Assembly: GCA_905178155.1 (NCBI GenBank)
Contig: CAJINV010000003.1
Coordinates: forward strand, 3,901,600 to 3,965,599
From: Amoebophrya sp. A120
Taxonomy: Eukaryota; Protista; Dinoflagellata
Reading direction: 5' to 3'
Length of the DNA stretch: 64,000 nt
The notes under the pieces are model-generated. The model saw only the letters and a program-made list of their open reading frames with translations. It had not been told where the DNA came from and made no database searches. A program made the position numbers and the translations under genes. This document shows positions 16,527 to 50,500 of this stretch, one piece after another. Positions within the stretch are counted from its first letter, which is position 1. Every line of letters starts with the position of its first letter.

Positions 16527-19500
16527 ATGTCAGGTACCCTGATCATGAGCTCGGGCGCAGGTCCGCCGGCGCTACAGCATCAAGCCGGTCACCACCCCGC
16601 AGGAGCCGCCGACGTCAACAGTCATCACGAGAATCTGGATCATTTTGACGCTCTCGCGGCGGAAGATTTTGACCCTATCGCGTTCCTGAACAAGCAGTTC
16701 CCCTCGGAGAAGTCCCTGCAGCACGTGGACAAGGTGATGCAACAGCTGGACAAGATTGCGGCGACCATCGATACGGAGCTCCGGCACGCGGTACACGAGC
16801 AGGCACGCACGGGGTTCCGCGCCAAGGAGGACCTGGAGCAGGCTAAGACGGCGATGGGCGACCTGATCACGCGGGTGAAGAACGTGCAGTCCAAAGCCCA
16901 GCAGTCCGAGTCGCTGGTGTTGGAATTCTGTCGGAACATCAAGTTCCTCGACCTGGCGAAGAAGAACTTGACCAACACGGTGACCGGATTCAAGAGGTTT
17001 GTCATGCTCGTGTCCGCTCTCGAGCAGCTGCGCCGGCTTGCCGCGGAACGCGAGTACAAGAAAGCCGCCCAGTTGCTTCACGCTTGCGAGGAGCTTGCGC
17101 AGCACTTTCAGGGCTTGAGCAAGGTGGTGCAGAAAGTGCACGACCTCTTGCGACAAAAGGACTCACTACTGGCGGATCTGCGGGCGCAGATCTTTGAGGA
17201 CTACGACGCGCTACTGGACCCAACCGACGTGGATCTACGTCGCGAGGACATCAAAGCCGCAGCGCACTGTGTGAATGCCATGCCCACAAAGACTGTACGC
17301 CACGAGATTGTCACAAGATTTTGCCTGCGGATTTTGGAGGACTACAAAAAAATCTTCTCGCCCTCGCAGAGTCAGACGGCTCTTGGGGTTGGCGCGCCCG
17401 GTCAACCAGGGGGGGCCGGTGGACCGGGCGGTCAAGCCTCGCAGCAGGAGGAATACTCGGGCCTGGAGCACGTGGAGCGCCGCTATGCATGGCTCCGCCG
17501 CACACTGAAGGAATTCGACGACAAGTATCTCGAGTTCTTCCCTTCTTTCTGGGGCGTACCGTGCTCGCTGTGCGAGCATTTTTGCCACATCACAAGACAA
17601 CACTTGGTGGAGGTGCTCGGCGCTACGCACCACACAGCTGATCCGGAGCTCCTGGTGCGGGTGTTGCGAAAAAGCATAGAGTTTGAGAACGACCTTGCGA
17701 AAAAGTTTGCGGCGTCGGCAGATAAGGACGGTAATAACAGGGAGAGGCAGCTGCAAGCAAGAAGTCCGGGCGGAGAGGTAGGAATCGCATGTAATAGATA
17801 TTTCTGCTCTTATTTATTCAACAGGATGCCGGGCGGGTATCCCCGACAAATTGCGCCGAACATAAACAAAAGATACTGTACGGAAATATGTCAGAAAAAT
17901 CTTACAAACAGAAACCCGTGCGGCACATCTCGGAGTTCGTGACAGAATCCGACCCGGGAGCAGATGCGGATCGGGCCGATCCAAGCCGGGAGCTGCCGAT
18001 GGCCTTCGTGAAGTACGGATTCAGTCCGACGAAGAGGGCACAGCAGGCGTCACCAGAGGACAGTAGCCACCTCCCCCGCTTCCGCGGCATCGTGTCCGAG
18101 TGCTTCGAAGCGTACCTGGGCACGTGGGTAAACTACGAGGCCAGCAACTTGAAAGCCCTGATTCCAGAGCAGGAAGACATGCCCCAAGTCGAAACGGGAA
18201 CGACGGGACCCGCCAGCGCAGAAGAGGATGACGACCTCGGGGACGACGACTCACGCTACGTATCCATTGTTGCAATAGTGCCGCTGCTGATGATGATGTT
18301 GTTTGCGACGTTATTTTCCCCAACATGCCCTCCCCTGAATAACAATAAATCCATCAGGTTTTCCCCTCCGCGCCTGCCCTGTTCGACGCGATGCGGCGGG
18401 TGATGATGAAGTGTGTCTCCTTCAGTATCGACCAGACCTTGTTCGAGATTTTTCTGGTGTTTAAGCAGACCGCGAACCTGTACTGCTCGACAATTCACAA
18501 CCGCGTGAAGAGAATGACGGTGGGCTCGGGCTACGTGATCTCCGACGAGGACCTCAAGATTGCGTGCGCCTGCATTGGCACGTTGGAATACGTGGATCAG
18601 ATGCTGCCCCAACTGTCCGACATTGTCCGGCAACACCTCACCTCAGGAACAAGCACATCGAGCCAGTACCAGAATAAGATCGACTTCGATTCCGAACAAG
18701 AAACGCTGGGCGCGATCACCGCGTCCATTTACGCAGACGTGCTGGTGAACTACCCTCGGATGAGTACCCTGCTCGCCCGCCTCAGCGCCACCATGATGAG
18801 CCACTACGCTCAAAAGTTTTCAAAACGCGGGGCTGGTGGTGCAACAGCGCAGGGAGGATCAGGTGGGGACATTACGACCGCGTTGGGACAGCACCAGCAG
18901 CCACCGTCCGCTGTTGCGTCCTCCAGCGCTGCCTCGTCGTCCGCTGCAGCAGCTAATTCCAGTAGTTCCAGTGGCTCAGCATCAACATCTGCGCCGACCG
19001 TCTCGCCCTTTGTTGCGGAAATTGAGGACATTTTCACATCGCACTGCTCCCTGACCAGCGGGTACTTGTCCAAGTTACACTACAGGTTTTTCTGCGACAA
19101 GCACGCGCAGTGGTTCATTCCGCGCTTCACCCACGAGATTTACAAGTGCCGCGGGGTGTCGAAGCAGGTGGCGCGGCAATTTCTCATGGACGCGGTTGCC
19201 ATCAAGAACGTGCTGCTACAGGTACCCGCCGGAGCGCTGCGTGCGCGCTCCGGGGGTGCATCATCGCAAATCAGCATGCCTACGGCCTACAGCAATTTCG
19301 TTTTGCGGGAGTTTGGTCGCGTGGAGTTCATCTTCAAAGTGTTGTCCGAGGAGGAAGAGGCCGTGCATCGATTGAACCACGGCGTGGACGTAACACAAAA
19401 GGAAATCGACCAGATTCTGATGCTCAAAGAGGGCGCAGCCATGGACGATGAGATGTTCAATCCGGTAGATGGCGGCGATCTGTTGGGCGGGGGCAGTGTC

Positions 19501-19665
19501 GACCCCGCTGCGCGAAACAACCCGTTTAACTTTGTGCAGTCCACATTGCCAAACGTGAATCCCTCGATGAAACAGTTTGCCAGCGACGCACGAAAGCAAG
19601 CTGACACCATGAAGCAGCTCGCTGCCGACGCACGGAAAAAACTCTTCGGAAACATCAAGTTTTGA
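16527..19665 (+). CDS. VPS53: GARP/EARP complex subunit Vps53
   Basis: FDPIAFLNKQFPSEKSL, IKFLDLAKKNLTNTVT, LEHVERRYAWLRRTL, FCHITR, FRGIVSECFEAYL. Canonical introns at about 17778-17911 and 18260-18357. Confidence 0.92.
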
Positions 19666-20453: not shown

Positions 20454-23400
20454 ATGACGGAGATCCTGGCAGCAGCAAATGGCGGCTCATCCTCTTCTCC
20501 GCCGCTGCCACCGCTCGGACCGGTCGAGAAGCAGCAGTCGGATCCGCCGAAGATTTTTTTTGCCGCGACGCGCCTGCACCGGACGGATGCGAGCGTGGAT
20601 GCAGGGCAGCTTTTGAACAAATTGCGGCGGGTGATCGAGTGCGCCGGCGGTGCGGGCTGCCATGGATTCCTGGTCGCCTACCCTCTGTGGGACGCCTTTC
20701 TCCGCCGGTCCATTGACCGCATTCTGAAGTCCAAGCAGCGGCGCTTTCCGCAGCTGCAACTGCTGGAGCCGGTCCCCGTGCCCTACTGGGGCGCGTTCAC
20801 GCCCGCACTTTCCAACCTGATCGCGGCGGCGCTGGCGAAGAAGGCGGACCTTTTGATGTTCCTCTCCCTGTATCAATTGCAAAAGTGTCTGGGTCTGGAA
20901 GGTTGAAACCTCTGATGCGCATTTCAGAACGCAGAAAAATCTCTCATGCATAGTCAGCAAAAGTTGCCCACTTTCTGTCACCAAAGTCAGGGAATTGTCA
21001 TGCGGGTTCGGCATTGCGAACGCTTGTCGAAGCCTGTGATGCTAGAGCTTCCATGCCAGACCTTCTGTGTCATGCAAAAGCAGCACGATTCTTCCAGACC
21101 CAGACGTTTTTATATTTGATACCCTGGAAATGATCGTTAACGGTTTTTCCGTGGACATTTTGCGCAGCTACCTTTCCGAGACCACGCTCGTGGTTGGGCC
21201 CGAGCTCAAAAACAGCCACTTGTTCGGGCTGGATCACAACCCCGTGTTCGAGCCACCCACAAACCAGAGGACCGAAGTTGTAGATGACAAAGCAGAGCGC
21301 CATAAAAAGAAGCCTTCATTGTCGTCTGCTCCTTCCGAAGATGCTGATGAACACGGCTCGAATAGTTGTACAAGCAAATGGTCGTTTGAGGTGAGCGGGG
21401 CCAACATTCCGTGGAACACCTGCGCAATCTGGGATTTGCAGAAGTTGTCACTCTTCGGCTTTCCCAGCATCGCAGACGGGCACATTCCGGGAGTAGAGAA
21501 GGGGATCGAGGAGGTCGTGGCGATCAACATTGCGCAGTCTTGCCTGACACCGGCGCAGGCCGAGGTGAAGCTGATTCGGCTGCCGGAGAAGGGGACCACG
21601 TTGTTCAACAACAGTCCTGGCACCAGCAACAGAACTGTAGCAGGCCCACCGCAATTGCAGCTCTCGGCGAATTTGTCCGGACAAAATAGACAGGTGTCCG
21701 GTCCTATGGGTCCCGCCACGACGAGTATGAAAACCAAAAGCCCCGTAGCTGGTGCAACTACTACGACACCTTCAAAGGGGCCAGCAAACCCACCAGTTCC
21801 ATCGCTTCCTCCGGGCGAGGAAGTCTTCGCCAGTGAAGAAGGCCGGGCGAGTAGTGCCGGCAATGTCGCAGGCCAGGAGGACGCGATCTGCATTTGGGAC
21901 GTGTTTGGCACCGCGTGGATTGAGCTCATGCGCACGGGAGCATCAAGGACATTGGCGCGGGAAGTGTCACACATGATCGACGAAGCGCAGCACGAGCACT
22001 TCCGCGTCACCGCGGATGATGAGTTTGGGCGGTTGAGTGAGGGGAAGGAGGAGGATTACTCCAATGCCGGCGCGGATGGGGCGGCGGCCAACGCCAACAT
22101 CGGTTTAGCAGCAGGAGTAGGAGAGCTACAACTAGTCGCGGCTACTTCTGCAGCTGATGGCAATAAGAGCTTTTTTGCCAACAGCTCTGCCACTGCGGAG
22201 GATGACAAAGTGATTTCAGCCAGCGGAAAAAACCTGCAGAACATCCCACTAGCGCCTGCTGCGATGGCGGAGATAAACCAGAACAAGACGCTCCTGTCGA
22301 ACAGCGGGATGAACACTTCTAAGTTGATACTAGACGTCAACCTTCGGGAGGGTGACGAGCTTTTACTCGCGCCGAACCTGAAGGTTCTAACCAGCGACGT
22401 GGATCTGGTTCCAGGCGAGAGTCCTACTCTGCAAGTTGCCCTCGGCAACCCCCGCGGCGAGAACAATCCTCGCGAGAGCCCGGCCTCGGACAAAATTAGC
22501 ATTCACACCATCCGCAGCGGATCTCAGGGGGCGCAATCCAAGAACTCGCGGTCTGCTGGTGGAAATATGAACCTGGCTTCATCTGCCGTCGCAAACCAAA
22601 AAATGCTGGGTGCTGCTGCGGAACCGAACAGAAACTCCAAATCGAAGATTCCACAGCACCCTCCAGACGAGCCTCTGGCGCTGGATGGTGCGAGCTTCGA
22701 TCCCGTCGGAATAAGACCGCAGCACGCCGCCGCGGCCGCGGAGTCGACAGAAAATAACTCGGAAGCAGATGAATTCTCTTTCCTGCCAAAGGCCCGTGCG
22801 GGCGGCAGCAAGCCGCATACAGGAATTCTCGCCGGCGGTGGTCCTCCCATGATCGGAGGAATCACGGCAGGCGAAGGGAGCGCTGACGACATGCAAGAAC
22901 AATCCGGCAGCGCCGTGTCTTCCACCGGAGAAGACGACTTCATGTCCTCCGGCGGTGGACAGCAGATCGGGGACCAACAGCCGCATCAATTACTGAACAC
23001 GAAATCGTCCCCACCAGTCGTAGCAGCGAATGGAGCATCTTCTTTCCGAGGTGGAGCAGCAGCGGAGCACCAGCTGCCGCAGCTGCTACAGAAGGTCGCC
23101 AGTAGCGACTCGATCCGCAGCATGGGAGTGGCTTCCAGCGATTCCGAGAGCAGCAGGATCGTTTTCGGTCCCACCACCCGCTCCGCCCATATTGGCGCGA
23201 AGACGAAGGACCGCTCTTTGATGGCACGGGGCGGTGGACCAAACCGCAAGATGCCCGGACCGCTGGTGCGAAGCGAGGGGAGTACGGCGTCCATCGGCTC
23301 CATTTTCACGAAGGAGGAACAGAAAAGCCTCACCAAAGAAGAAAAACACATAAGGAAATGCGCCACCAAAATCTCCCGCGCAAACAGCCAAATGAGACAC

Positions 23401-24156: not shown

Positions 24157-27100
24157 GTGTCGTCGTCCTCTGTGTCATCTGGCAACATGTTCTTGCCCGG
24201 TTTTTCGACGGACGATGAGCAGTGGGCGGCAGCCGCAGCTGCGCAACAGGACCCTCGACTTCTTGAGTCCTCCGGATCAGATTCAGACTGGGACCCCGGG
24301 CTGCGAAGTGTGAGTGGTGTGTTGGATGTGTACGCGAAGATTGCGGATTTCGGGGTGGCAATCCTGGATGTCCTGGTCCTCCAGCACATTCCGAAAGACC
24401 ACCCGAAGCTAGCCCCCATCGACGACGAGGATGACAGTTCGGAGGACTCGTTCTCCACCTCTTCGTCGATGTTGGAGCGCCGAGCGTCCTTCGAGTTGGA
24501 CTCTCCGCCCGAAGACGTGTACGAAGAGGAGGATGCTGACGAGCTGCAGAACTTTTATCAGGACGCCGAGGCCCAACAAGAACAGCTAAAGCAAGTGCAG
24601 CAAGGTGGAGCTCTTGTTTTGCCACTCCCGAGCCCCTCAGCGCTACAGGACCAGGAAGTACTTCTAATGAACAAAGGTGGAAATAACTATTGCGAGGTGA
24701 ACGACGGTGTTAAGAAGTCGGTGCAGCATTCGCGCGACCGTGACGGATTGGAGGAGGAGGCGGTTAAAAATGGGCAAGAAAGCATTTTTTCCAAAAAATC
24801 ATCGCCGCGGGAAAGCCAGGCCGAGGCCGAGAACAATTCTGCTGTGCAGGAACTAGCGGACGTCGAGTCAGTCTCAGCCCTGCAAGAAGCGTCATTCCTC
24901 GTAGAAGATGAAGAGGGAGAAACCACTCCCCACAATGGCGTGGCAACCAGTAGTCTGGCCGCAAACGTGGATGAGACGGAAGAGTTGAGTCCCGTAACCA
25001 TCCGACAGTCTGTTCTTCAACAAGAAGAAGTCCTCGGAGAAGCTGAGCTGCAAGCATCTGCTCCTCGCGAGTCGCTGGAAAGAAACAACGAGATGAAGCC
25101 GAGTGATGAAAACGATGCCAGTCGCAACCAGATGCTGGCGGAAGAAGGAGCGCGGAAAAGCCGCGTTTTGACCGCAGGGGCGGTGTTTGCCCGGACGCTG
25201 CTTGAGAAGCGCGCCCGGTCGCGCTCCGCGGGAGGCTTCAGCCCGAAGTATGGATACATGACTTCTTACCCCCATGGGACGGATGAGCATCATCAATTGC
25301 GTGAATACAACTTCACTCTGAACGACACTGCACCGTCTGCGATTATAACACACCAAGCTGGTGGGAGAAGCCACCGGTCGCGTGCAGATTCGAACTCACA
25401 GGTACTCCGAACAAAAGGCAGAAGCTTGTCGCTCGATTTGTATAATGCGGCGGGGCCCTCGTCGAGAACGAAGGTAACCTGCAGGAGAGGGAATAAGGGA
25501 GCGGCACGCTCGAGTATGATTGCAGATAATCATGCTGGCAGCAAAACGACGAGCAACCACCAGCTGTCCAAAACTGAGAAGAGCAACCGGAGTTCGCCTC
25601 AACAGCCACCGGTCTTAGTACGGGAGAACCGAAATAGTCCGGCCGTAGGACAAAAATCCTCGTCTACTTCTCCGCTCCGAACCAAGAAGCCGCACGCGAA
25701 GAAGTCGTGGTGCCCTTATCTCCTGTGCTGCTGCTGTCCGTCCGTGATTTCGAGAGTGTGTGACTCGGTGGCGGCGGGCATCGGTAACCGGGTCGCTGCG
25801 ATGCGAGGAGCCGTGCTCGGCGGCGTCTGTGACTTCTTTCTGCCGTTGCGGCACCGCCCCCTGCGGGACCGAGCGCCGATATTCGTGTGCAGCAGCTTGT
25901 TGGGAATCATCCAGACTGCAGCCCAGATCGGACTTCTGGGTCCCATCGGATTACCCTTCCAGACTGTCTACACGCTGACCTGCATCAGCTACTACCAAGG
26001 TACAGTGATACATAAACAGATTATACCACTTTCATCAAACTGAATTTCTTGCTCGATTTCTTCTTTTTTTGATGTTTGTCGTCTGATGTCAAGTACAACT
26101 ACCTTGGCGATGTGTCGTGAGTCCTTAGATAGATTCCTGCCTTTCAAGAACTCCCAGCTCTGTAATGTCAAAAGGAAAAGCGCAGTGATAGATATAAACA
26201 TCAAAAACTCAACCACAGCCGTCGTAACGCCGCCTGGTTTCATTCCGGAGAGTTGGTGGATCGTGGGTCCCGGGGTGACGTTTGAGCGCAAGCGGAAGAA
26301 TGGGGACTACCGCTACTGCACGATGGAGCGCGTTTACAAGCCGGACCGAGCGCACTACTGTCGGACGCAGCAGCGCAACGTGTTGCGCATGGACCACTAC
26401 TGTGGTTTCCTGAACAACACCATCGGTATCCGCAACCACAAGCTGTTCATGCTGTTCCTGACCTATGCCAGCTCCCTGTCCGCGTGGACGGCCTATCAAC
26501 TGCTCACCCGGGGCCCGGGGTTGCTGGCCCTCGCCACGACTGGCGCTGCTGGAGCAACAACGAGCGCCGTTGTAATTTCGCCGGGGGGACTCCTATTCCA
26601 CGTCGGGACCACAGGTATCGCGACCATGGTGTCGTTTGGAGCGCTACCCTTCTGCGTGTTCACGATGTGTCTGGCGGTCCGAAATCAGACCACCATCGAG
26701 TTCGTGGAAGGCAGTCGCGTCCTCACTCGTCGCCTCGCGGTGTGGGAGGCCCCGCTCGAGGTTATCGCGCAAAGTAGCAAAAGTCCATTTGGTGCGGGTA
26801 GTATCGTCCAGAAAGAGTTTCTGCGGACCCAGCAAGTGCAGTTGAATACACCCGCCTCGAGCGCGCTGGCACTGGCTGCGACGCCTGCGTCGGCGGTATT
26901 GGTCCCGCCGATGCTGGTGAACAAGGGCGACGAAGCGGCCCAGTTCAGCGACTTTCTCACGCCGAAGCAGAAAATCAACGGAACTTCTGCTGCGTCGGAA
27001 CTACGACCAGACAATTGCAGTAACAGCCGCGTGGAGGTCGAAGAAGAGGACAGTTTGATGAACACAAGCCGCACCGTCTTTGAAGACAGCACCCCAGCAG

Positions 27101-28091
27101 TTACTAGCCAGTCGCTGTTAGACTTAGACAACACTACGGCACCTCTGCTGGCAGATATTACGTCAATTTCCCAGCAGCCGTGGGGCGGTTCGCCGGGCGC
27201 TAGCGGAGTAGAGAAGCAAGCTGCAGCTTCCAACATGTTGGCCAAGAGTAGCATGCCTTCTACCCAGGACGTGGTCGTGTTAACCGAGCCGACCGCGCCC
27301 GCTCCTTATATGGATTGTAAAAATGTCTGGGTCTGGAAGGTTGCACCTTGTGATGCTATGTTTCGACTCTAAAAAGATTTGTATTGCATGACCAGCAAGA
27401 GGAGTCCAGTTTTTGCTACGTCGGGAGGGCATTTGTCATGCGGAATAGGCATCAGGAGGCCTTCTAAAAATCTGTGATGCTAGGTCCCGCATTCCAGACC
27501 TCATGGGTCATGGGAAACCTGCATGACAAACATGCACTTTTCCAGACCCAGACATTTTTACATTTGATACCTTACGCTGTGCACCCACGTCGCGCCGCAC
27601 CTGGACGTCAGGCCACGTTTCTCTGCGATGCCCCCTATCCTGTGTAAAAACGTACCCACAGCCACACCAGAGTTGTAATGCAAATCTGCATGCTGAAAAT
27701 GTTTCTCATGCGGAGCCCCATGAGAAGCGTTTTCTAGTCGTGTTTTGCAATTTGTCATGCTCCAATCAGCATGGTGTGCTAGATCTGTGATGCTGCTGAG
27801 CTAGCTCAAACAGCACTACACTACGAATCCAAATTTGTCATGCAAAACAGCCAAAACTTGTGGATTTGTCTAGCCGATTCCCCATCTTGACTATGGTGTG
27901 GGTACGTTTTTACTCAGGATACCCCCTACGGAGGCTTCAGTGCTTTTCACAACCTAAAGCTACTTTTTGGCCCAAGCTACTGGGCGTGGTTGCTGCCTGT
28001 GGAACCCTATAACGGGGACATTGCGCCCTCTGCAGGAACCTACTTTCCTGTACATCCGTCGAAGGTGCAAAAACGTATTCGCGCTGAATAA
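24157..28091 (+). CDS. DHHC-type (DHYC) protein S-acyltransferase with a long N-terminal extension
   Basis: KPDRAHYC..NVLRMDHYCGFLNNTIGIRNHKLFMLFL and NQTTIE. After two excisions the C-terminal PaCCT-like motif PYGGFSAFHNLKLLFGPSYWAWLLP..FP appears, with stop at 28089-28091. GT-AG intron at about 25999-26218. Start uncertain. Confidence 0.9.
27309..27569. mobile_element. TIR introner-like element, family A (261 bp), DR CCTTA
   Basis: Left TATGGATTGTAAAAATGTCTGGGTCTGGAA; right TTCCAGACCCAGACATTTTTACATTTGATA. CCTTA at 27304-27308 and 27570-27574. Similar to 8784-9045 along its length. Confidence 0.95.
27636..27921. mobile_element. TIR introner-like element, family B (286 bp), DR CCCCC
   Basis: Left TATCCTGTGTAAAAACGTACCCACA; right reverse complement TATCCTGAGTAAAAACGTACCCACA. 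CCCCC at 27631-27635 and 27922-27926. Confidence 0.93.
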
Positions 28092-29312: not shown

Positions 29313-29437
29313 GGTCGTCGGCCAGGGCAGCCGCCGCCGGCCCAAGAAACACCAAAAAGAAACTCCAGGCGAAGCAGAAGTCGCGACAATTGAGAAACTG
29401 AATGAATTTTGCGCACTAGCACTAGGAGCAACCGGCC

Positions 29438-32400
29438 ATGGAGAGGGACATCGGGCAGGATAGGGATGGCGATAGGCCGTCGCGTCCCCGGCGACACTCG
29501 TTGACGCACGACGGAACAAGCGAGCGACTTTTGGATACCAACAGCACCAATCCAGTGGTGGTGCCCAAGTCTGTCGCCGCGGCTATGCCGGCAGCTTCCT
29601 CGAGTGAACTACATCAGAGCCCCACTCCGTTTGTCGACACGCACTGCCACGTCGAGCTGATTGCCGCGTGCGCGGAGCGCGAGAAGCGGCTGGACGGGCT
29701 CCTGCCCTGGGACGAGCTACCGATCGAGCGGATGGGGATGTGGCGCAGTCACGGGTGGACCCGGGAGAAGTTTCAGCGCACGATCGAGGGAAAAAAAATC
29801 TACGGCCCCTACAGGAACCCGCATTTTCCCGCGTTTTACAAGCCCTGGCGTGCCTTGACGAAAGACCAGCAGCTGGCCGCGCGGTTTCTGGGATGGGACG
29901 GCGCGCACTACAAAGGTTCCCCCGACAACTGGACGTTCAAGGATGAGTACGACGAGATGTATTCCACCTCAAAGGGCGGCCAGGGCCACCCCCACCAAGT
30001 CACTGTGAAGTGGGCGGACTTCAATAAGTACCACGACGGGTGGTATTCCAAGCTCTCCGGGAAAGAGCGCGTTGCCTTCGCGATGCTGGGCATAAAAGAC
30101 GCCTGGACCTTCTGCAACTTCGTCTGCGAGCCGTGGGAGGTGAGCCGCAACCTCTGGATGCGGCGCCAGGCGGTCTTGCACGACGTCGCGTACTACTACC
30201 CCGACGGTCACGAGTGGCATCAGAAGAAGGAAATTGAGGCAAAAAAAGAAATTGTACCTCCCACAAGAATTACTTCCCAGCCCGGGAGTCGTGGGCAGCT
30301 AGGCCAGACATCAGTGGAAGATGTTGCAGGAGAAGCTCGTCTCAACACCGAACAAGTAGGGGACCACAATGGAAATGTTGAGTCGGACGTTGACAGCGAG
30401 GTGGACCAATTGATGTTGCGCTCGCCGAAGAGAGAGTCCTGCAAGCGGTTTTTCAAGCGGGAGAGCCACCCAGAGGAAACCAGTGTGTTGGTCCGGGCAC
30501 TGCGGATTCCCTACGGTTGTTGTTCGCGAGGCTCGCCGTGGAGTAAAAACGAGTGGCGGAAGTGGAAACAAGAGCAGGAGAAACGCGGGGAGACCACCAT
30601 GTACTCGGAAAACGAGTGGGATAAGTTCTTCAACGAGTTGCCAGAAGGTGGTGGTGGTCGTTCTACAGCTGCGGCTTCATCTTCCGGTACAGGTGGTCGT
30701 GGCCATCTTCCGAGGGACACCGGTTCGTCGAGTTCTTCTATGACGACCAGTTTGTCACAATCATCATCATCCCAAACAGCCACAGGCACAGTACCTAGTA
30801 CCTCGGCTCGACGTGAGTTTTCGTCTTCGCCAACCACGACAAGCCCGTCGACCTGCAGTACCGAATCCCCGCAATCGTCGTGCGTTGCCACAACTTCTTC
30901 CGTAACGACGGACGACGACAGTTTATTTCTGGGGCCTACCAGTGACGAAGCAAACCTGCCGCGGCAAGAAGCAGCATGCGACCTGATGTCTTTTCTGAGG
31001 GAACGCATCCCGGAGAAGAGTCCTGAAAATAACGACACTGAGAATGCGAGTGCAGCAGCTGCGCCTGAAGATGTTGAGAAAGTGGCGATAGACGATGAAA
31101 TTAACTGGCAGTGCAGCGGAGTTACCGCTGGTGGACAGACGGTCATCGTCCGGCGAGAAGACATGCAGAACGGCAGCCGCGACCCAACGAGGTCCTACCA
31201 ATGGTTCGAAGTAAAGGCGCTCCGTCTGTGGGTGTTCTGCGAGGTCGTCGATGACCGGTATGGACCATTTCCGAACCACATACAATCGTTTCGCGACACG
31301 GACCAGACGAGGGAAAAGCGCGACAAGCCCCTTCATCCCGGGGGCACTTCCAGTGACCAAAGCGAACAAAAATCTACTTCTTGGCAGAGTAGAACTAAAA
31401 GGTCTACTGGCACGACGGATAAAGTAAAGTGCCACGCTTGGAATGACTTTTACAACGGCTACGAAGTTATCCAGAACTGCCCTGCGCTGTTGCGGTCTCC
31501 CAAGTTAAAACAGTACTACGACCGGATTGGCCGCTACGAGACGCTTCGGCACGAGGCGAAGAGCTCGGTGCACGACTATTCGGTGCGGAAAAACTTCTAC
31601 GACCCGGGCAAGAACGAGTTGCCGTGGCTGGACTGGTATGTCGAGCGGGGGCAGTGCAACGTCTCGGGACACGAGATGGAGCTGGTCTCCCGGCTCGGAA
31701 TCGTGTACAACTGCATCACGCAGTTCTGGCACGTACCGCCCGCCTACCGCAACCGCCCGTGGTGGTCCTTGGCACCGTGGGAACGAGAGATTTTTTTCGA
31801 GTTGGGCCTCAAAACCGAACCTGAGTACGACTACTGGCAGCAGTTCGTGGACGTCACCCATACGGACACCTTCCATCCTATGGAAGCGTCAGAATCGAAA
31901 TTCGCAATATCGAAAAACTTGTGATGCACAAAATCGATGCCAGTTGGGGTCTCAGTTTCCAAATGGCGCATGACAAATTGCGGGAGCACCCAAATCCAAT
32001 CTGTCATGCTGTTTGGGCAAAGAAGGCTGCTCCTGTCATGCTACTCTGACAGCACATTGCATAGGCCTAAACAGGCTTGCAATCGGTCTCATATGCCTGC
32101 TCCCCAATACAGGCCTTCAGTGCTCTACATTTTATGCATCACAAACTTTTCGATTTTGTCGATTTCGATCCTGACAGTTCCATACACCCCCGCCGGGCCG
32201 ATTACCACCCGCCAAACTTCGACTTCGCGACGAGAAGAAGCGGAAGTACTAGCGAAGAACTACCGGTAGTGGCGGCAGAAGGTGAACAACGGCCGCGTGG
32301 CGACGTCGATGAAGTACCACGACGGCCACGTGTCAGGGAACCTCCGAACGAGAGGCCACCTCCGCCACGGGAAGTAGCCGACGGTACTACTACGCCCGGA

Positions 32401-35400
32401 CTGCAGCGGCCATCGAACGACCGACACCGAAGAGCATCTCCGGTCGCTATCGAGCAGTACAACTCCCCGGAGGAACGTATTTTCACCGTGGAAGACTTGC
32501 TGATGATTATGCATTGCAAACTCCAACATGTCTGGACCTGGAAGATCGACTCGCGCATTTGCCATGCATCTCTTGGCTCACACTCACACAGAATGAGCAA
32601 AGAACCATATCAACAGATTGTGCAAGAGCGTCTTAAGAATGCCTATTCCACGTAAAGAAAAAGTTCGTCCTTCTCCTTGCTTTGCGTAGCAAGAAATGGC
32701 CGGCTTGTGGCTTTCATGCAATTCAGATGTTTGCACGATCCAGAATGGCTGGCATGTTGACATCAAGTTGCAACGTTCTTCCAGACCCAGACGTATTTGC
32801 GATGCATACGGATGCGCATGATTCAACTGAACGAACTGTTGATTCGACTGCTGCTCCCGACGCCCCCGAGGCCTTCGGAGAGGGTTGAAACCATCTTGCG
32901 GTTTTTCTACGACAACTTTAACTACACCCGAGACCTGGACGAGTTTTTTCCCCTTTACGTCGACGGGGGTATCTATCAACCGGAAAAAAGCTAGCACGCA
33001 ACAATAACGAAAAAGAAGTACTAGATAAATCTGTCTGTGTCTGAACTCCATGATGCTATGGGCAGCTCGCTCGCCGTTGACAGTTTATACTAAAAATTAT
33101 TGTGATGTTTTTGCGTTTACACAGCTTGATAGGTGATATGCTAGGTTTTTTCTGTAGGATGGCCTCGACCGGACCGAGCTCGCGGTGCGGCACGAGCGGG
33201 CGCGCGAGCGGGCGGACGAGGAACAGGACGAGGCCCGAGCGGAGTTTCCCAAGGGACACTACGCGTTAACGCGGGATAAGAACACTGGCAACGTGTATGC
33301 GCACTTTATTCCCCAAAAGAAGCACTACGACGATCGCACGGAGGACATTGCGAGGCAGGCTCGCGGAAAAAGAGGTCCCTCGAGCAAGAAAACTATGCGA
33401 GGATCCCTCGACCAAGATATAATTGAGACAACCGAGAAACAACAAGCTAACGCGCTCGCTCTATCTCCAACAAGGGAGCGGCAGCAGGAGCAGGAGGGGC
33501 ATCGCTTGGCGACAGCGAGCTGCTTCTCCAATCTGGAATTTTGGATCTCCACCGACGATGTGAGGTCCTGGATGTGGCGCTATCTCAGCGAAAAAATTTT
33601 GGGCTGCAAGCGACGCGCAAATCGGAAAACTATAACGGAGAGTGCGAATAAGGATAATACGTCTACTCCGAGTGCAGCAGCAGCAGTCAAGAGTTTGCAA
33701 GACCTGTACAAGCTTCGGCACGAGATAGACCTTCTTGGATTGTCGGGGGGTGAAGCAGGTACCCTTCTTGTAGTGGAAAATCTTTTTGTACCGTTCAATA
33801 ACAGAAAGAATAAAACGGACCGTTTGTTTCTTTCACAGTTTCTGTCCCCATCCAAAAAGAATACAGGTAGTTCAGGACTTTTTCTTTTGATTTTACATGA
33901 TAGGTGTATTGGGTCAGGGCGGGATCGGGAAGAAACCGAAGTCCAGCTCCGACGTCGACACGCCTCCAGTTTTACCCCTGCGCTCAACATTCACTGCCCC
34001 GACCTATTACTGCGACTACCTCGTGACGTCCATTTGTGACGAGCACGCCGTAGAGCCCGTTCTGGATATCCTCGCAACCGGTACCTACGCCGAGCGCGTC
34101 TGCCTCTCCTGCGGGATTCATCCGAAAAGCATCGGGTTCTGGGGTTCGGAGGGAAACTACCGGCAGCACCCGGATTACAAAGACTACATGCGCACCCTGG
34201 AAACCAAAGTTTTACCGCTCTGCGACGTGTCTGAGCACTGCATGAGAACGCTTAAGTGCAGCGTTCCCCGGTTGGACGGTGTTACGTTGCAAGAAAATAA
34301 ACATTTGAGGCTTCAAGAACCTTGTTACGATGCTCCTTCCTTTTCAGGTCCAGCCGCCACCGCCAGCTGTGCGCCGATGAAAGGTGGGCTTGGATACTGT
34401 GCTAAGATTTGTTTTTTCCGGCCGTGGCCGAAATTGAGGTGGATCGGAACCCTGCACGTTTCTGATCTAGAAGTAAGGTAAACGACATGTTAAAACGATT
34501 TTGTTTCGGTTTGAGATACTTTATGATACTGTCACCGGAAGATGATCATGCTTCCTCAAATAAACAAAACACAGGTGCTGGTACTGAAAGAAAACGGCTG
34601 AAGCTGGTGGCTTGGGGGGAGATTGGGCTTGATTTCTCCCATCGTGTTATGCAGACCAAGGTCGGGCCGAACATTCGTGTCGCACAAAAGGCTGCCTTCA
34701 CGGAACAGATTTTGCTCGGTATGTATCGACACAATAGAAAATTTTCCTTTTATACCCGGTCGGTTTTTTAGCTCCAGTGTCACCAGATAAATGTTTTGCG
34801 ACGTCCTTTCCTTCGTCGTTAAATAAAGGCCGGCAGCGAGAAGTCGGAAATCGTCGCTCAGTTGTTTAGATTTGCCTTCCTCCACTTCGACATTTTCTCC
34901 CAGGTGTGCACAAGTACCGGCTTCCCCTGCAGATTCACAGCCGGTCGGCGGAACCCGATACGGTTGAGATAATGTATGGCGCTTCAAACGTTACATTCTC
35001 AACTGTTACATGAATTTGTGATGCAAGAACAGCAACACTGAAAGGGGCAAGCTTGCACCTTTCGCATTACAAATTCGGCACAGATTTCAATGCTGTTTAG
35101 CCCTTCGAGAATTTGTCGTGCGGAGTAGCTTGGTTGTGGTGTGGCTGATGGCAATTTTGCATGACAAATCACGTAACAGTTGAGAGTGTAACGTTTGAGA
35201 ACTCCATATAATGTTGCGGTACGTGCCCCGCGACTGGCCGGTGCACATCCATGGGTGTTTCAACATATGACAGTGCACAACTCCCCCTCCCCCTCATTTG
35301 TCATGCAAAATACCCAGTCCACGTCGCGTCCACCCTTTGCCTCTTGGCACTGTTTGCATGACAGGTTCTGGTAGCCCGAATAGCACTACACTCCAGTGCA

Positions 35401-36135
35401 AATTTGTCATGTAAAACTTGCATTCTTTCTGACGCTTGTATTGCCGTGTATGCTATACAAATGAGGGGGAGGGGGAGTTGTGCGCTTTCATACAACAACG
35501 ACGACTTTCTGAAGAAGCTTCTCCGCACCTTCTCGCGATGCTACATTGGCGTCACCTGTGCGCTGGAGAACCCGAACGCGATGCTCTACTACACGAATGA
35601 CCCGAAGTTGAAATACGTCGACGACGACGTGACCGAATCGGCGGAGAATACTAGCGATGATTTTTGTTGTGAGCCAGTGATGGTACTTCCCAGTCCTTTT
35701 GCGAAAAAAGGCATTTTTTCTCGCGGCGGAACCGGAAGTGGTGGAATAAGTATCGAACAAGAGGAAGTCTCTGGAAACAAACGCTTGCTGCGGGGGGAAC
35801 ACGAAGACAAGAGTGCTGTTACCGGCACTTCTAATAGTACCCAACAGTTATCCCAAGCAAGAGCAGAACCCCCCACGCCGGAGAAAATAAAAAAGAATGT
35901 GCATGTATTCGAAACTCCGCTGATGCGACAGGTGCGGACCATCATTCCGCTAAGCCGGTTACTGGTGGAGACAGATGGCCCATACCTCTGCCCCGGAGAG
36001 GACTGGACGACAAATTTCAGTTACCCCGCACTTCTTCCGCGCGTAATACAGACGGTTGCGCGGCTGAAAGAGCGCCCAGAAGGTGAGGTCGCGAAAATAC
36101 TCCGGAAAAATTCTTTCGATGTGTACGGTATCTAA
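29438..36135 (+). CDS. TatD-family metal-dependent DNase with a very large insertion; five TIR elements plus other introns
   Basis: FVDTHCH, VAWGEIGLDF, QKAAFTEQI, LPLQIHSR, PRDWPVHIHGCF, YIGVT, PLSRLLVETDGPYL. The frame is restored at each TIR excision. One intron near 34230-34530 is unresolved. Confidence 0.88.
31879..32184. mobile_element. TIR introner-like element, family D (306 bp), DR CATCC/CACCC
   Basis: Imperfect TIR of about 50 bp: TATGGAAGCGTCAGAATCGAAAT..TTGTGATGCA versus reverse complement TATGGAACTGTCAGGATCGAAAT..TTGTGATGCA. The join gives TFHP|RRADY. Confidence 0.9.
32508..32808. mobile_element. Degenerate family A element (301 bp), DR ATGAT/CGGAT
   Basis: Left TATGCATTGCAAA..ATGTCTGGACCTGGAAGA; right TCTTCCAGACCCAGACGTATTTGCGATGCATA. 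Excision with 5 flanking nt joins ORFs 32077 and 32797 in frame. Confidence 0.85.
32974..33161. mobile_element. Degenerate TIR element (188 bp), DR GTATC/GCCTC
   Basis: Left TATCAACCGGAAAAAAGCTAGCA; right reverse complement CATCCTACAGAAAAAACCTAGCA. Excision with 5 nt joins ORFs 32797 and 33185 (GGI|DRTELAV). The nearby GT(32969)-AG(33157) pair would frameshift. Confidence 0.7.
34975..35208. mobile_element. TIR introner-like element, family E (234 bp), DR TAATG
   Basis: Left TATGGCGCTTCAAACGTTACATTCTCAACTGTTAC; right reverse complement TATGGAGTTCTCAAACGTTACACTCTCAACTGTTAC. TAATG at 34970-34974 and 35209-35213. Confidence 0.92.
35266..35492. mobile_element. TIR introner-like element, family F (227 bp), DR CAACA
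   Basis: Left TATGACAGTGCACAACTCCCCCTCCCCCTCATTTGT; right reverse complement TATGAAAGCGCACAACTCCCCCTCCCCCTCATTTGT. CAACA at 35261-35265 and 35493-35497. Confidence 0.93.
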
Positions 36136-37106
36136 AGAACAGAACTAAAATTTACCACGAAGATGAAAAATAGTGCTACATCGTTCTGCGCAGTAGATCA
36201 ACCTCCAAAACGCCACATAATTTCTACTTTTGGGTGGAAAAGTATTTTTACAAGAAAAGACTCTGCGTCTTTATGGATTACATTTGCTGCGACTTATGTT
36301 ATCGTCTGCATATAAATATTATCGTCTGCATTCTTTGATTTCTGCATGTGCATACCCTGGCTTTGAATGTTTCATCCCCTTTCTAGCCTTTATGGTTCAA
36401 CTTCAAGATTACGATGACTGCCACACTTTCGGGGAGTCGCGCTTTTCATGGCATTCATCGAGTCTTGGAAGCGCAACACAAAGTTGAACATTTTTTACAG
36501 AAAGTGCGAAGAAGTGCTCATCTGCTCGGCGATTGTCCACACAGTTTAATAATGACATGGCGCATAGTTTCCTGTTTGTGCAACAAGCACGGCCGTTGTG
36601 CTCAGTAGCGAGATAAATGTTTGTTCGACATGAAAATACCCCCTGGCACCTTCGTTTTGTTTCTTTTTGTACATGATTGCGTATGCGTTGTTCGTTTTTT
36701 CTTCGTGCGCATATAATCCTATCGTGCTCGTCATAATCGTCTTTGTCTCCGGCGATCATCGTTGTCGTGCCAGATGGCCAAAAAAGGCTCAGAAGTATTT
36801 TTTTTTCTGGTCGTTCGCGTGCTGTCACGGTCTGTAAAAGGAGGCGAAAAAAAGGCGATGAGTATTTTCGCCATCTTGTTTTTTAATGATTCTGATGCAA
36901 AGCCTCGAATAACGTCATTTCCAACAAAGTACGCAGTTACAAAATCCCAACCCACACCCAATTACACGCCTACCCACTTGTACATTATCGCTACACACTT
37001 TCGTGACCGTGTCGGTGACTCTACACCTTAAGAAGAAAGACGAACTTTTCAACCGAATCGGTCCCTGCAAACGAACCCATCCTATTTCTACACCGTTTGA
37101 TGCAAA

Positions 37107-38696
37107 ATGCCACCGAAGAACAAGGTAAGCACAACCACCAACTCCAAAAAGCAAGGCGGGAAGGCAGTTGCGGTTCCCGTCGCAGGGGAGCAAGGTCCGG
37201 CTTTTCGCAGCTTTCATTGGCGCAGTCACCGGATTGAGTTTTTCGTCTACAGCAAAGGAGGTCCACGAGCGAGCGTCAATACGACGGTATGCGCGCACGT
37301 GACGGAAAAAGGTACAACTGGAGCCAGCAAAAGTACCGGTATTAACAAGCGTGCCGCAGCAGCGAAGGCGACCCCCAACAAAGCTGACGTGATCCATGCA
37401 AAAGAGGAGAAAGAACTCAAGCGCCAGGTCGAGAAGCGGCTCGGACAACCGCCCGGCAGTCTCGACGACTATCTGAATGAGCTCGGAATATGGCGCAGTT
37501 CAGATGTGCCTGTGCCGGCCGGTGGTGGAACAACGACCAGCAGCAAGCCGTCGCCGTCGCTGGCACCTGCGAATAATTACGCCTTTGCTGAAAGCGCAAC
37601 CGGCTACGTGGGTACGAAAGAAGGGGAGCAAAACGAAATACGGAACACATTGCCAAAGCCCTCGCCGACTCGCGTGTTTTCTACTTCGCAGAGATCTTCA
37701 GACCTGACACCGCACGACCAGAGGGAAGATTCGTTCCTCTTCAAGAGTTCACTTTCGTTTGGGACTAGCGCAGCATCCAGCGCCGGGAGCTTTGGCTCCT
37801 CTGTGTTCGGAGCTCCCGGGGTCTCGTCCGGCCGCGGAGCAACAGTTTTTGGAGGTAGTACTACTAGTACAACCGCAGGCGGATCTACTACTACTTCAAG
37901 TGGTATCTTCCCAAAAAATACAATTCCGCAGCCAATACAGCACAACTCGGTATTTTTCGGCGCGGCGCCGTGCGGTGCCTCCAGTAGCAGTAGTAGTAGT
38001 GCATCACTCGCCGGCGGGAACATTTTCCTGGGATCAACTTCTGGACAAACACTTCTACCCGGTGGTGGTAAAGGTGGGAAGCCATACGCTGCCGGGGCTT
38101 CCGCTAGTCGAAGTACCTTCGTTCCTTTTACAAACGCAGGATCTCATCACGAGCCCGTAAACCGGTCACCCCGGCTAAGTCCGGTCGGCGTTGTTCCAGG
38201 TTCTCCTGGTGGAACATCTTTGAAGATGAACAGTGTGCCAGATGTAATCCCGCAACGCACGACGAAATTGAGTCCAGCGAGAAACGTATCAACTTCGAGT
38301 GTTGATGTAAAAACCCCGCCAGCGCCAACATCGTCCTCCAATGTGGGTACGGGAAGCGAGCAGGCGAGTGAGGACGATAATGCACTAAAGGCGAACGGGA
38401 TGACCACCGGGCCACCCACGAAAAGGCAGAAGACGTCGGGTAGAAGTAATTCCCCGTCCTCGCGCGCAGCACTTGCGAACCGCATAGGAGCCGTGCGAAT
38501 AGCCAGCGTCGACGAGGCATTGTCCATTCTTGGCCTCCCGAACATGCCCCGCGAAAAAAGTGCACTCACCACTGCCTGGCGCCGCAAGGCGCGCGAGTGC
38601 CACCCAGACAAGTCCTCGGTCAAAGAAACCGCCTCGGAGCACAACTTTCAGCGCGTGCAGAAGGCGTACTCCTTTCTGGAAAAGCGAGTGAAGTGA
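37107..38696 (+). CDS. Protein with a C-terminal J-domain (DnaJ type III) and Ser/Gly/Thr-rich middle
   Basis: ALSILGL..LTTAWRRKARECHPDK..FQRVQKAYSFL at the C-terminus of a 529-aa ORF. Confidence 0.8.
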   Translation: MPPKNKVSTTTNSKKQGGKAVAVPVAGEQGPAFRSFHWRSHRIEFFVYSKGGPRASVNTTVCAHVTEKGTTGASKSTGINKRAAAAKATPNKADVIHAKEEKELKRQVEKRLGQPPGSLDDYLNELGIWRSSDVPVPAGGGTTTSSKPSPSLAPANNYAFAESATGYVGTKEGEQNEIRNTLPKPSPTRVFSTSQRSSDLTPHDQREDSFLFKSSLSFGTSAASSAGSFGSSVFGAPGVSSGRGATVFGGSTTSTTAGGSTTTSSGIFPKNTIPQPIQHNSVFFGAAPCGASSSSSSSASLAGGNIFLGSTSGQTLLPGGGKGGKPYAAGASASRSTFVPFTNAGSHHEPVNRSPRLSPVGVVPGSPGGTSLKMNSVPDVIPQRTTKLSPARNVSTSSVDVKTPPAPTSSSNVGTGSEQASEDDNALKANGMTTGPPTKRQKTSGRSNSPSSRAALANRIGAVRIASVDEALSILGLPNMPREKSALTTAWRRKARECHPDKSSVKETASEHNFQRVQKAYSFLEKRVK

Positions 38697-47582: not shown

Positions 47583-50500
47583 ATGGTCGAGTGTCCAGCA
47601 GCTCCAGCGAATTCCTCAACGCATCCCAGCATCGATGAACCTCCCACATCCAAATGCTGTACAACCGGTCCCAAACGAGAACCGTCTTCCAGAGTTAGCC
47701 ACTTGGAGCAGGTGGTGAGGCGGCGCTCCACGTCTCTTCCCGCACCGGTGAGACCTTGCATCGATTCTTTGAAGCGTTTCCTCTTGCGCCTCTTCTGCTG
47801 TCACGAAGTCGAAGACAGCACAACACGGGGGAACAAGGATAAAAAAAGCAAAAAGTGCTATCGGAGTTCCTGTTGGCCATTGATTGTCATGGGATCGCCC
47901 GAGTCCGAGCACGGCGCCGAACGGGACCAGTTCGGCACGGATGGCGCGAGCAGGCTGCGCAACAAGTTTCGCATTCTCTTGGAGAATCACAGCGGCATCC
48001 CGTTCATGCATGACGGCGATTATTTCCCGAGCGGGGCCACCGTCGCAGATGTGGGGAGGAATATCGGACAAAAGAACGTCGAAAAGACCCAGGTAATCCT
48101 CAGCTCGAACTACTGCCCGAGATCCGGGGTGGTTTGGTTGGTCGATCAGGAAGCTTTTGAAACCTACTGCGTCGTCACCTTCTATGGCAGCAAGAAAGTG
48201 CGCGTTTGGCTCGGAGAGTACGCGAAAAACAGTGATGGGACTTTGATCAACACTTCATCTACTGCCGATGGTGGTGCCTCTGTTCCGCCGGACAGCAGCG
48301 CATCAACCAATCCGGGGGCGGCCCCGCGATCCGACCAGGAGCAGCTTCCCTGGGAACTCAAGGACGAACTTGGCACCGGGGCGAAATCGGTCCCAGTGCT
48401 CGAGGCGGGCGGGCCGGCGGACGTCGCCAGTGGCGCCGTCAAGTTGTGGACCGTGAATCGCCAAGCGTGGTACGCGCTGAGCGAGGACGGTCGCACCCTG
48501 TACATCACGATTTTGCCGTCACTGCGACCCTACAAGATTGCCCAGCAAATAGACTACGATTTGCAGGAGGAAAACGGAGCAGGTGCATCTACTTCAAATA
48601 AAGTTCCTGCGCCGGATCATGCTGGTAGAAGTGCTTCATCGCTGGCCCTGATACCGCACGGGCAATCCAATGCGCGCGACGGGCTCAACTTTGGCCCGGG
48701 GTTTGCGGACAGCGCGCTGAGCAGCGCAATACCAAAGCCACCCGTGAAACCGAAGCAAAAGACGCAAACGGCGAAAATATCACGCAAACCCATGGGTAGT
48801 GCCGACCCCTCTACTGGGGACGAACAACAATTTTCGTACTGGAGACAACAACTCGACGACGTTAGTCATTATGCGCAAGGGGCTCCGACGGAGCTGGCAC
48901 TGCTCGAGATGGACGGAGTGCTGTACTTTGCCGAAAAAAGCGACAGCCAGAAACCACTCTGCTCCGAACAGGGAGATCTTGTCCCCTTGCACGCACTAGC
49001 GGCAGCGCCCGGGCAGGAGCTAATCGTCGTGTTGATGGTAGACATCACCGAAGTAGACCAGGAAGCGGAAGAGACCGCGAAAGAGATCTGGGCCAAGACC
49101 CGGCCAAAAGACGCCTGGACCGGACTAAAGCAGGGCGTGGGAAGCATTGTCGGTGGTGCAGCCACCGGCGTGGTAGCGCTCGGAGCGGCAACGGTCGGGG
49201 GCGTGCGTGGCGCCAAACCCGGCCTCGGAAACAAAGCGCTGGGCCTAGTGAAAGGACTCGGTGTCGGCCTCGTCGCCGGAGTTGGTACTTTGTTTTGCTG
49301 ATTGCTCAATGCAACTTTCATTTCCGTACATGTTAAGTTTTGATAAGGGTCGAACATTGTTTACCAGATTCGTCAACCTCTAGCTCTATGCACTTCGTAT
49401 ATAAAACAGCGATGCCCGTGGCGGGCGTTGTTGGTGGCGCCACGCAGATCGTGCGCGGCGTTAAGGCGGAGGCTACCGGGTTCACGGCGAAGCGACAGAA
49501 CAAGATCTGGGACCCGGAAACCGGGACGTGGGTCAACGTGAATCTCCAGCTGATGGACCAAAACGTGCAGACCGAAAACCGCCTCTTGAAGGACCAGAAA
49601 GACGGAACGAGTCCAGGGAACAAATCAAATAACCGGAAGAGCGGGACTGCGGGCAGCGGCGGCAGTGGAAATGCACCGGTTGAGGTAGTGGACACGGAAT
49701 ATTACGACTTGCTCGGCATCGATCCGTATAAAAAGGTGGACTCCGCGGAAATCAAGAAAGCCTACTACAAGATGGCCCGAACCTGCCACCCGGACAAGAA
49801 CCCCGACGACGAGAACGCAAAAGCGAAGTTCCAGCAGTTGAGCGACGCCTACTCGGTGTTGTCGGACGACCACCTCCGCGAGAAGTACAACAAGCAGGGA
49901 AAAGACGCGGTGCTGGAGTCAGAAAACATCCCGAAAATCGAGCCCACTGTGTTTTTCGCGCTCTTGTTTGGCTCCGAGAAGTTTGACGGCTACGTGGGCG
50001 ACATGAGCATCGCGACCCTGGCAGACTCCATGTTAAAAGGGTTCGAGCAGAAGGAGGGAAAAGACTCGAAGAGAACGCAGCAGAGAAAGAAAAACCTGAA
50101 AATGCTGGTGGACACCGTGCACGTGCCACCGACAACTGGTAGTAAAACAACCGCTGGGCAACGTGTGGAATTTTCAGAGGATCTTCCCACGACTGGTGGT
50201 GAGCAACAGCCTCCTGCCCCCACCGGAACAACGACCTCGGCGTCGCAAGAGGAAATAAATGGTGGACTGAAGAGCTGCAAAACGCGGGAGCAGACTCCCA
50301 ATCCGAGAAAGAGTAGATCCGGGATGTTTTCCGGTTTTGGTGGAAACACAACAACTGCTTCCACTAGTAATGGCGGAGCTACAAGCTCGGCGTCCGCTAC
50401 GAGCAGCGCGACGACATCTTCGACCTACGCTGGTACTTCTGCGACCGGTTCCTCCGCTTCCGCGGAAAAAATGGACGAGGACTTGGACGAAGATGGTGAG

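Follow-up and report, generated by a model that had tools for sequence, protein, structure and literature searches.

Within a 64,000-nucleotide stretch of Amoebophrya sp. A120 DNA (contig CAJINV010000003.1, positions 3,901,600 to 3,965,599; hereafter, the window), we examined short elements that begin with TAT, bear terminal inverted repeats (TIRs), and lie between direct repeats. Our sequence analysis supports a short motif, here termed the box, as a shared, sequence-specific cis-element that spans families with different TIR cores and would act at the DNA level in transposition. In the reading that we consider probable, the elements are non-coding, inverted-end insertions that are moved by cut-and-paste and then spliced from transcripts; while the elements transpose, a protein would bind the boxes on double-stranded DNA, and the TA at the 5′ end of the transcript would serve as a splice signal.

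A box shared across element families

In the window, 18 elements that start with TAT and have inverted ends occupy 4,675 nt (7%), each between repeats of 5 nt. The original prediction that all elements start with TAT was borne out (18/18); 16 end in ATA and 2 in ATG, and in both elements with a damaged end the left TAT is retained and the ATG stands at the right end. We counted 34 copies of the exact box (TTGT(C/G)ATGC, in either orientation), where 1.47 ± 1.24 would be expected; 0 of 100 shuffles reach this number, and a chance origin was rejected. A tandem-repeat artefact was likewise rejected as the source. As predicted, the motif is rare outside the elements, which contain 32 of the 34 exact matches; the remaining two lie at 16999 and 62145. 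Boxes were present at every position cited earlier (6615, 8515, 31919, 35016, 35298, 54603, and 55674 on the forward strand; 8688 on the reverse strand). That most elements carry a box 30–45 nt inside the end holds by a narrow margin when the exact 9-mer is required, which starts 28–50 nt from the left end in 10 of the 18 elements, from the right end in 10, from both in 9, and from either in 11; three elements have no exact box anywhere. The predicted inverted copy near the other end is found in cases such as 8688, but this layout is not universal: in families B, G, H, and I, the box at one end often faces the other way.

A larger sample was obtained by scanning a sequence collection with the family A end pattern, which gave 184 stretches, spread over 10 of the 64 parts of the collection; the viral contigs scanned with the same pattern returned none. 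The set of loci comprises 169 loci and 546,369 nonredundant nt, all from JACKZZ01 contigs except for one locus (L032). A motif-blind search yielded 396 elements (15 from the window and the rest from the loci of a related assembly) and none in 481,279 nt of shuffled control. Family letters A–F were matched to the earlier scheme, and G–I were added in this analysis. Element length has a median of 259 nt and ranges from 109 to 320 bp. Among 376 pairs found without using the duplication, the target duplication was exactly 5 bp in 289, 4 bp in 2, and 6 bp in none.

All families share an end design, TAT(C/G)-N6-AAA, followed by a family-specific core. Adenine occupies positions 11–13 at a frequency of 0.86–0.93 in 792 ends that were themselves chosen for TAT; in a TAT-blind count, the consensus base at each of positions 1–3 was present in 704–712 of 728 ends, with A at position 2 in 712. 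Interiors fell into 40 clusters (single linkage put D and G together), and grouping by core gave nine families and a remainder. The predicted difference in TIR cores was confirmed, and the description of the families as unrelated fits their interiors, which do not align between families, but not their ends, given the common terminal design and 5-bp duplication.

The 8-mer TGTCATGC was the top shared de novo motif, present in at least 25% of elements in all nine families, with a wider consensus of (T/C)(T/C)TGT(C/G/A)(A/T)TGC. The exact 8-mer is carried by 195 of 198 family A elements, 24/24 in B, 15/19 in C, 10/10 in D, 12/12 in E, 16/16 in F, 34/61 in G, 9/11 in H, 8/8 in I, and 30 of the 37 others. 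Elements average 0.84–3.16 exact boxes (0.01–0.07 in shuffles), or 2–6 when scored with a position weight matrix (PWM). The enrichment over background that the prediction called for is also evident as density, which is 9.70 boxes per kb in element-like DNA versus 0.072 in long open reading frames (ORFs) and 0.30 in other non-coding DNA. The non-element, non-ORF DNA of the loci holds 88 boxes in 297 kb, often clustered and at about four times the ORF density; these are likely the remains of decayed elements turned into ordinary-looking introns or spacers. Positions 3–12 of family A and G elements themselves score as a reverse box centered at position 7–8, and the end may therefore contain a box-like site. 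The extended box resembles the animal Sox-Oct composite site, probably by coincidence, but a minor-groove bender of the HMG type is among the candidates for its binder.

Spacing, constraint, and decay of the box

The boxes show a recurrent geometry. A same-strand pair 31–32 bp apart, equivalent to three helical turns, is found in 286 of 396 elements and is held by at least half of the members in eight of nine families, the exception being family E (1/12). No spacing off this peak reaches more than three families, and the location of the pair differs from family to family. Across families, the spacers of the pair resemble one another only a little more than shuffles do (0.325 vs 0.289 ± 0.004). 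The distance of the first forward box from the end is bimodal, at 37–38 and 46–49 nt, and forward boxes are phased at 10.5–10.75 nt from the end across families (p ~0.009 by random family shifts).

Substitutions were counted on trees of 19 subfamilies and are given per 100 copy-sites for internal and terminal branches, respectively. The box accumulated 0.43 and 3.12, close to the TIR core (0.52 and 4.01), whereas its fourth base (3.04 and 7.12) resembled the rest of the interior (2.33 and 6.95). Seven of the eight box positions are therefore constrained about fivefold on internal branches, with the fourth base and neighboring DNA free to vary. Inner and terminal boxes are equally constrained (0.45 vs 0.41). 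In a two-term model, in which a terminal branch combines an unsampled lineage with post-insertion change, the latter comes to about 2.3% in boxes. Independent estimates of the free rate are 2.0–2.4% (2.4% at T1-A2 of the 3′ end, 6/246 at T3 of the 5′ end, and ~2% per copy in the duplications), and this match suggests that boxes are released from selection once inserted. Neutral decay in old copies had been named as grounds for refutation; the boxes do decay at about the free rate, which tells against the splicing branch of the original prediction only, as a signal used solely in transposition predicts such decay.

Several results weigh against the box as a lineage-selected transposition signal. 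In raw age classes, set by duplication mismatch, box divergence is flat (5.0, 5.3, and 5.2%) as core divergence rises from 4.9 to 9.1%; when stratified by subfamily, the age test gives P ~0.05–0.09 in all copies, and the difference is gone at ≥80% identity. Box position G7 is altered in just 1.1–2.2% of copies, slightly below the free rate. Reverse boxes lack significant phasing (p 0.09–0.10), and family G is off phase. Insertions or deletions of at least 2 nt occur in 7.5% of the 31–32 spacers and 9.8% of controls, a comparison made within subfamilies (p = 0.16). The phasing and spacing tests were post hoc, the families may share ancestry, and half of the sample (198/396) is family A since the loci were fetched with the family A pattern.

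Two other explanations turn on these data. A host DNA-binding protein that keeps acting on copies already inserted, in chromatin packing or in transcription through the element, could use the boxes as its sites; they would then be selected in place on DNA and have only an indirect link to transposition. We regard this as unlikely. The helical spacing and the strand symmetry described below fit it equally well, and some selection after insertion is hinted at by the raw age test and by how seldom G7 changes. Yet, measured against the interior, constraint is much tighter on internal branches (0.18) than on terminal ones (0.45), as in the TIR core; the implied post-insertion rate equals the free rate; and boxes are lost from old copies. 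Alternatively, the boxes could be functionless relics of one ancestral element and of internal duplications, which would account for the terminal design and duplication length common to all families, the slight likeness of spacers, and spacing indels that are not measurably suppressed. The fivefold constraint on seven positions beside a free fourth base and free surroundings largely refutes this idea; interiors that do not align between families and a pair whose location varies leave it very improbable.

Strand asymmetry, splicing, and pairing

A signal read on RNA should be distinguishable from one read on double-stranded DNA by strand. The transcription strand could be called for 283 of 396 elements, with within-locus agreement in 225 of 232 cases. 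Boxes lie on the sense strand 361 times and on the antisense strand 332 times (by element, 108 vs 99, p = 0.58); elements are inserted in both directions (105 vs 91), and box decay is 4.30% in sense and 4.87% in antisense. The terminal TA behaves differently. T1-A2 is changed once at the transcript 5′ end and 12 times at the 3′ end, among 492 sites each (p = 0.0034), with 0 versus 8 changed copies at T1 and 1 versus 4 at A2. This strict, TAT-blind count retained 246 of 264 copies and dropped 18; a looser count, which included misplaced ends, gave 2 versus 25 of 528 and was alike in family A and non-A copies. At the third position, T3 of the 5′ end is changed in six copies and the first A of the 3′ ATA in one (p = 0.125). 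That adenine, 5–7 nt upstream of the 3′ cut, is a candidate branch adenosine.

A single code made up of TAT and the box is not supported, since conservation of the 5′ TA differs between strands and that of the box does not. The original prediction of a single trans-acting factor for both was accordingly not sustained, while its idea of a shared cis-element at the level of transposition is supported by the cross-family 8-mer, the lineage constraint, and the pair spacing. From sequence comparisons, two codes are likely rather than one factor: the box, read on double-stranded DNA in transposition, and the 5′ UA, read as a signal for splicing.

Splicing was considered at a host gene on the forward strand (29426–36135) that has a TatD-like domain at its end. 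Taking out five elements, along with one copy of the duplication apiece, and three GT-AG introns leaves a single open frame of ~1,635 codons. An RNA-like contig from run X1 aligns to 30241–31876, 33165–33756, 33902–34381, and 35493–36496. It skips a canonical, box-free GT-AG intron on the forward strand (33759–33903) and therefore represents spliced RNA; among the listed runs with the stretch, none is recorded as RNA. The contig falls short by 810 nt across its first gap, equal to 311 + 306 + 193 (three elements with one 5-nt repeat each), and by 847 nt across its second, equal to 239 + 232 + 376 (two elements with repeats and 376 nt of GT-AG intron), but these splits are not unique, as others keep the frame and five intron pairs fit the 376-nt remainder. 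Since the inner pieces of the contig are not listed, splicing is inferred from lengths, and it is a further point against our reading that this is arithmetic on one contig rather than junction reads. The elements are apparently spliced out as introns, with one duplication copy lost each. For two elements with mismatched repeats, the transcript keeps base 3 of the left copy, which places the 5′ cut 0–2 nt before TAT; a codon test on 51 single-mismatch duplications did not place the cut. The duplication has no base bias and its mismatches are spread equally over the five positions (13–17 each), and the 3′ cut would therefore fall in arbitrary target sequence. Raw-read RNA runs X7 and X8 yielded element fragments only, with no exons covered.

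The five elements of this gene illustrate the range of box content. The family D element at 31879–32184 (306 nt, TAT...ATA, duplication CATCC/CACCC, 311 nt apparently spliced out) has its first box 41 nt in from the left end (31919–31927, forward), an interior reverse box (31968–31976), a forward direct pair with 32-bp spacing (32002–32009 and 32034–32041), and a reverse box that is the first counted from the right end, again at 41 nt (32136–32144). The decayed family A element at 32508–32808 has no exact box, a single interior PWM match, and two mismatches in its duplication, and the decayed element at 32974–33161 keeps its 5′ TAT, ends in ATG, and has zero box matches. The family E element at 34975–35208 (duplication TAATG) has boxes at 35016 (forward) and 35159 (reverse). 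The family F element at 35266–35492 (duplication CAACA) has a forward box at 35298 and a degenerate forward direct pair with 32-bp spacing (35405–35444).

These data bear on the other branch of the original prediction, an RNA-binding splicing factor. As considered here, this factor would recognize the box in pre-mRNA, take the place of U1, and mark these introns, with only box-keeping elements tolerated. In these genomes, U1 was not detected (PMC7789003). Flat box divergence in raw age classes, the lean of families H (14 vs 6) and I (4 vs 1) to the sense strand, which also counts against a purely DNA-level box, and the box density of non-coding DNA outside recognizable elements, ~4 times that of ORFs, would fit as well. 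Nevertheless, there is no overall strand bias, decay is equal on both strands, and the same asymmetry test did pick up the 5′ TA signal; the elements at 32508 and 32974 are apparently removed (306 and 193 nt) despite having no exact box; none of the three canonical introns contains one; and the 31–32-nt spacing and 10.5-nt phase fit B-DNA. We therefore consider a splicing role for the box quite unlikely and did not retain that part of the prediction.

The prediction also held that the stem sequence only needs to pair. Among end changes, 299 were one-sided and 25 two-sided, and 21 of the latter were compensatory versus 6.6 expected, which is compatible with a need for pairing. The balance leans the other way, as the core is constrained like the box, complementarity between ends is poor at positions 4–7 (0.39–0.74), and the core (positions 15–30) is often a tandem hexamer. 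Lag 6 is the top self-match in five of nine families and tied in one, with examples at 8490–8501 and 35281–35292 of the window; such cores could be barcodes for modular DNA-binding domains. 

A related proposal is that boxes base-pair with each other across the inverted arms of a hairpin, formed in RNA or in single-stranded DNA. Elements do fold into long hairpins (z −8.9 and −11.5), and in-register pairing with a second box is seen for 438 of 1,195 boxes; in these box–box pairs, the fourth base matches in 128 of 219 versus 40% expected, a figure biased by the folding itself. The other 757 boxes have no box partner; by family, 0 of 10 boxes pair in I and 6 of 71 in B. Without folding, the fourth base of terminal boxes matches in 43 of 144 elements, below the 40% expected. 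The conserved module is a direct repeat, which is unable to pair, and the families share sequence rather than complementarity; box–box pairing was rejected as the general mechanism, and we give this proposal the least credence. A search of Rfam with the window and locus L034 returned 0 matches.

Elsewhere in the window, family A elements lie at 6571–6848, 8474–8735 (inverted relative to 8784–9045 and 27309–27569), 8784–9045, 20871–21121, 27309–27569, 54562–54794, 55268–55541, and 55642–55893. Family B is represented at 27636–27921, with three exact boxes all in the same direction, and at 55936–56237, where the left TAT is kept and the right end is ATG. Family C elements lie at 4575–4889 and 54187–54502, and a decayed family G element without an exact box at 2340–2466. 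In two loci, elements host secondary insertions with short tandem-repeat tails that are SINE/non-LTR-like (L036 10304–10760 and L068 291–771). The ORFs of the window are eukaryotic genes on the forward strand, and 8 of 17 have a Pfam match, 2 of these weak. Neighboring host genes encode, by Pfam, Vps53 (16455–19662), a DHHC palmitoyltransferase (26044–27306), two DnaJ proteins (37101–38693 and 49337–51037), and a COP-type beta-propeller (59549–60280).

Proposed mechanism and relation to known systems

In the mechanism that we favor, an integrase-like transposase of the Ginger/IS3/IS481 clade would cut at the TAT ends and move the elements by cut-and-paste. A protein common to all families would contact both boxes of the pair from the same side of the helix and help to synapse the ends of these 109–320 bp elements; a conserved domain of the transposase and a host cofactor that bends DNA are about equally likely to be this binder. 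The family-specific core may be read by cognate transposases or may have to match between both ends. After insertion, boxes would decay free of selection, and the host would splice the element through the 5′ UA, a hairpin uniting the ends, and a fixed register. With cuts 0–2 nt before TAT and 3–5 nt after ATA, exactly one duplication copy would be lost. A bolder version, which we hold to be doubtful, posits an undescribed integrase-like superfamily having TAT ends and a 5-bp duplication, with one shared host factor on box pairs spaced by three helical turns and a family-specific tandem-hexamer barcode, together with a U1-less spliceosome that uses a UA-only donor and a 3′ ruler with no AG. The UA would then be +2/+3, with the first base free, and the 3′ cut would be placed 5–7 nt downstream of the first A in the terminal ATA, an adenine that may be the branch point.

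Two points on the enzyme count against this mechanism. Farhat et al. report no transposase in A120 and rule out general transposase mobilization (PMC7789003). We found no transposase, autonomous element, or binding protein; ~0.6 Mb contained only two long elements, both non-coding, and the Pfam scan of the loci covered the ORFs of these two but not the 279 long ORFs listed there. The two longest elements gave no Pfam match in nine ORFs. One (L034 632–1465), 834 bp long and thus near published family 38 in length, has family A ends and an exact duplication of 5 bp around a long stretch of foreign sequence that finishes in a run of CAT repeats; the other (L024 505–1608) belongs to family D, measures 1,104 bp, and has a GC-rich interior with repeats of the GAGAGG/CCTCTC type, in which no ORF is recognizable.

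By their sequence features, the elements are very likely introners of the Amoebophrya sp. A120 type. According to two reports, A120 introners have inverted repeats that start with TAT, seven variable bases, and at least three A (PMC7789003), and occur as non-canonical introns of ~240 nt with hairpins and direct repeats of 3–5 nt (PMC7789003, PMC12130899). The elements here likewise have the TAT start, an A run at 11–13, border repeats, a location in genes, hundreds of relatives, and apparent removal, and their family lengths match the A120 rows of Dataset sd07 (107, 149, 208, 222–234, 256–261, 278, 305, and 313–322 nt; PMC12130899). The duplication differs, being exactly 5 bp here versus the published 3–5 nt, or 2–6 nt by automation (PMC7789003, PMC12130899).

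The elements and their TAT end are thus already in print, and the internal grammar (box, pair, and 5′ UA) is apparently unreported. Within the literature covered, which left out subscription papers and theses, we found no description of the box, the 31–32 bp module, or the 5′ TA asymmetry. The accessible text of PMC7789003 and PMC12130899 reports no internal motif, phasing, or tandem-hexamer core, though figures such as S25 could show the box, and a term search of the available PMC12130899 supplements gave 0 box matches. The first of these sources frames as open questions the spread of tens of thousands of non-canonical Amoebophrya introns and splicing without a detected U1 (PMC7789003). The fixed 5-bp duplication and the lineage-constrained, helically spaced box point back to DNA transposition machinery, and the box pair gives a bait for catching its protein. 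The 5′-specific UA is a first sequence handle on the splicing mechanism, and strand asymmetry as a means of separating transposition from splicing signals is usable on any introner set.

Among described transposons, the closest pointers are integrase-like. A120 introner family 38 is annotated as Ginger, with a 5-bp target-site duplication and TA/TA termini (PMC12130899, sd07). It resembles the present elements in its 5-bp duplication, TA...TA ends, and TIR of ~50 bp, and its similarity to Copia/Gypsy integrase regions points to a likely enzyme class; compared by description only, it differs in being ~810 bp with retro-like ORF fragments (PMC12130899). In Ginger2/TDD, TDD-4/5 duplicate 5 bp, as here, but Ginger1 and Ginger2-TDD ends read TGTNR, whereas 712 of 728 ends here have A as their second base (PMC2836005). 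IS3EU/GingerRoot shares the TA..TA termini but makes a 6-bp duplication, found in 0/376 here (PMC2836005, PMC10045372). IS481EU ends are TNT..AYA, with duplications of ~4, 15, or 25 bp (PMC2836005, PMC10045372); our scan, which did not reach 15 or 25 bp, found 4 bp in 2/376 and 5 bp in 289. As described in these sources, none of Ginger2/TDD, IS3EU/GingerRoot, and IS481EU joins TAT ends with a 5-bp duplication, and filing the elements under Ginger, IS3EU, or IS481EU was rejected on termini and duplication lengths.

In form, the elements have the traits of miniature inverted-repeat transposable elements, being short, bounded by TIRs, flanked by a duplication of fixed length, and devoid of coding capacity. 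Arrays of subterminal or internal protein-binding sites are familiar from Ac (hAT), En/Spm (CACTA), the IR/DR of Sleeping Beauty, the ends of Tn7, and the enhancer of Mu. These arrays consist of several short sites in both orientations that are needed for transposition and are free to decay in dead copies. Their motifs are family-specific along with the TIR. By contrast, one box and one spacing are common here to differing TIR cores, in elements that double as introns.

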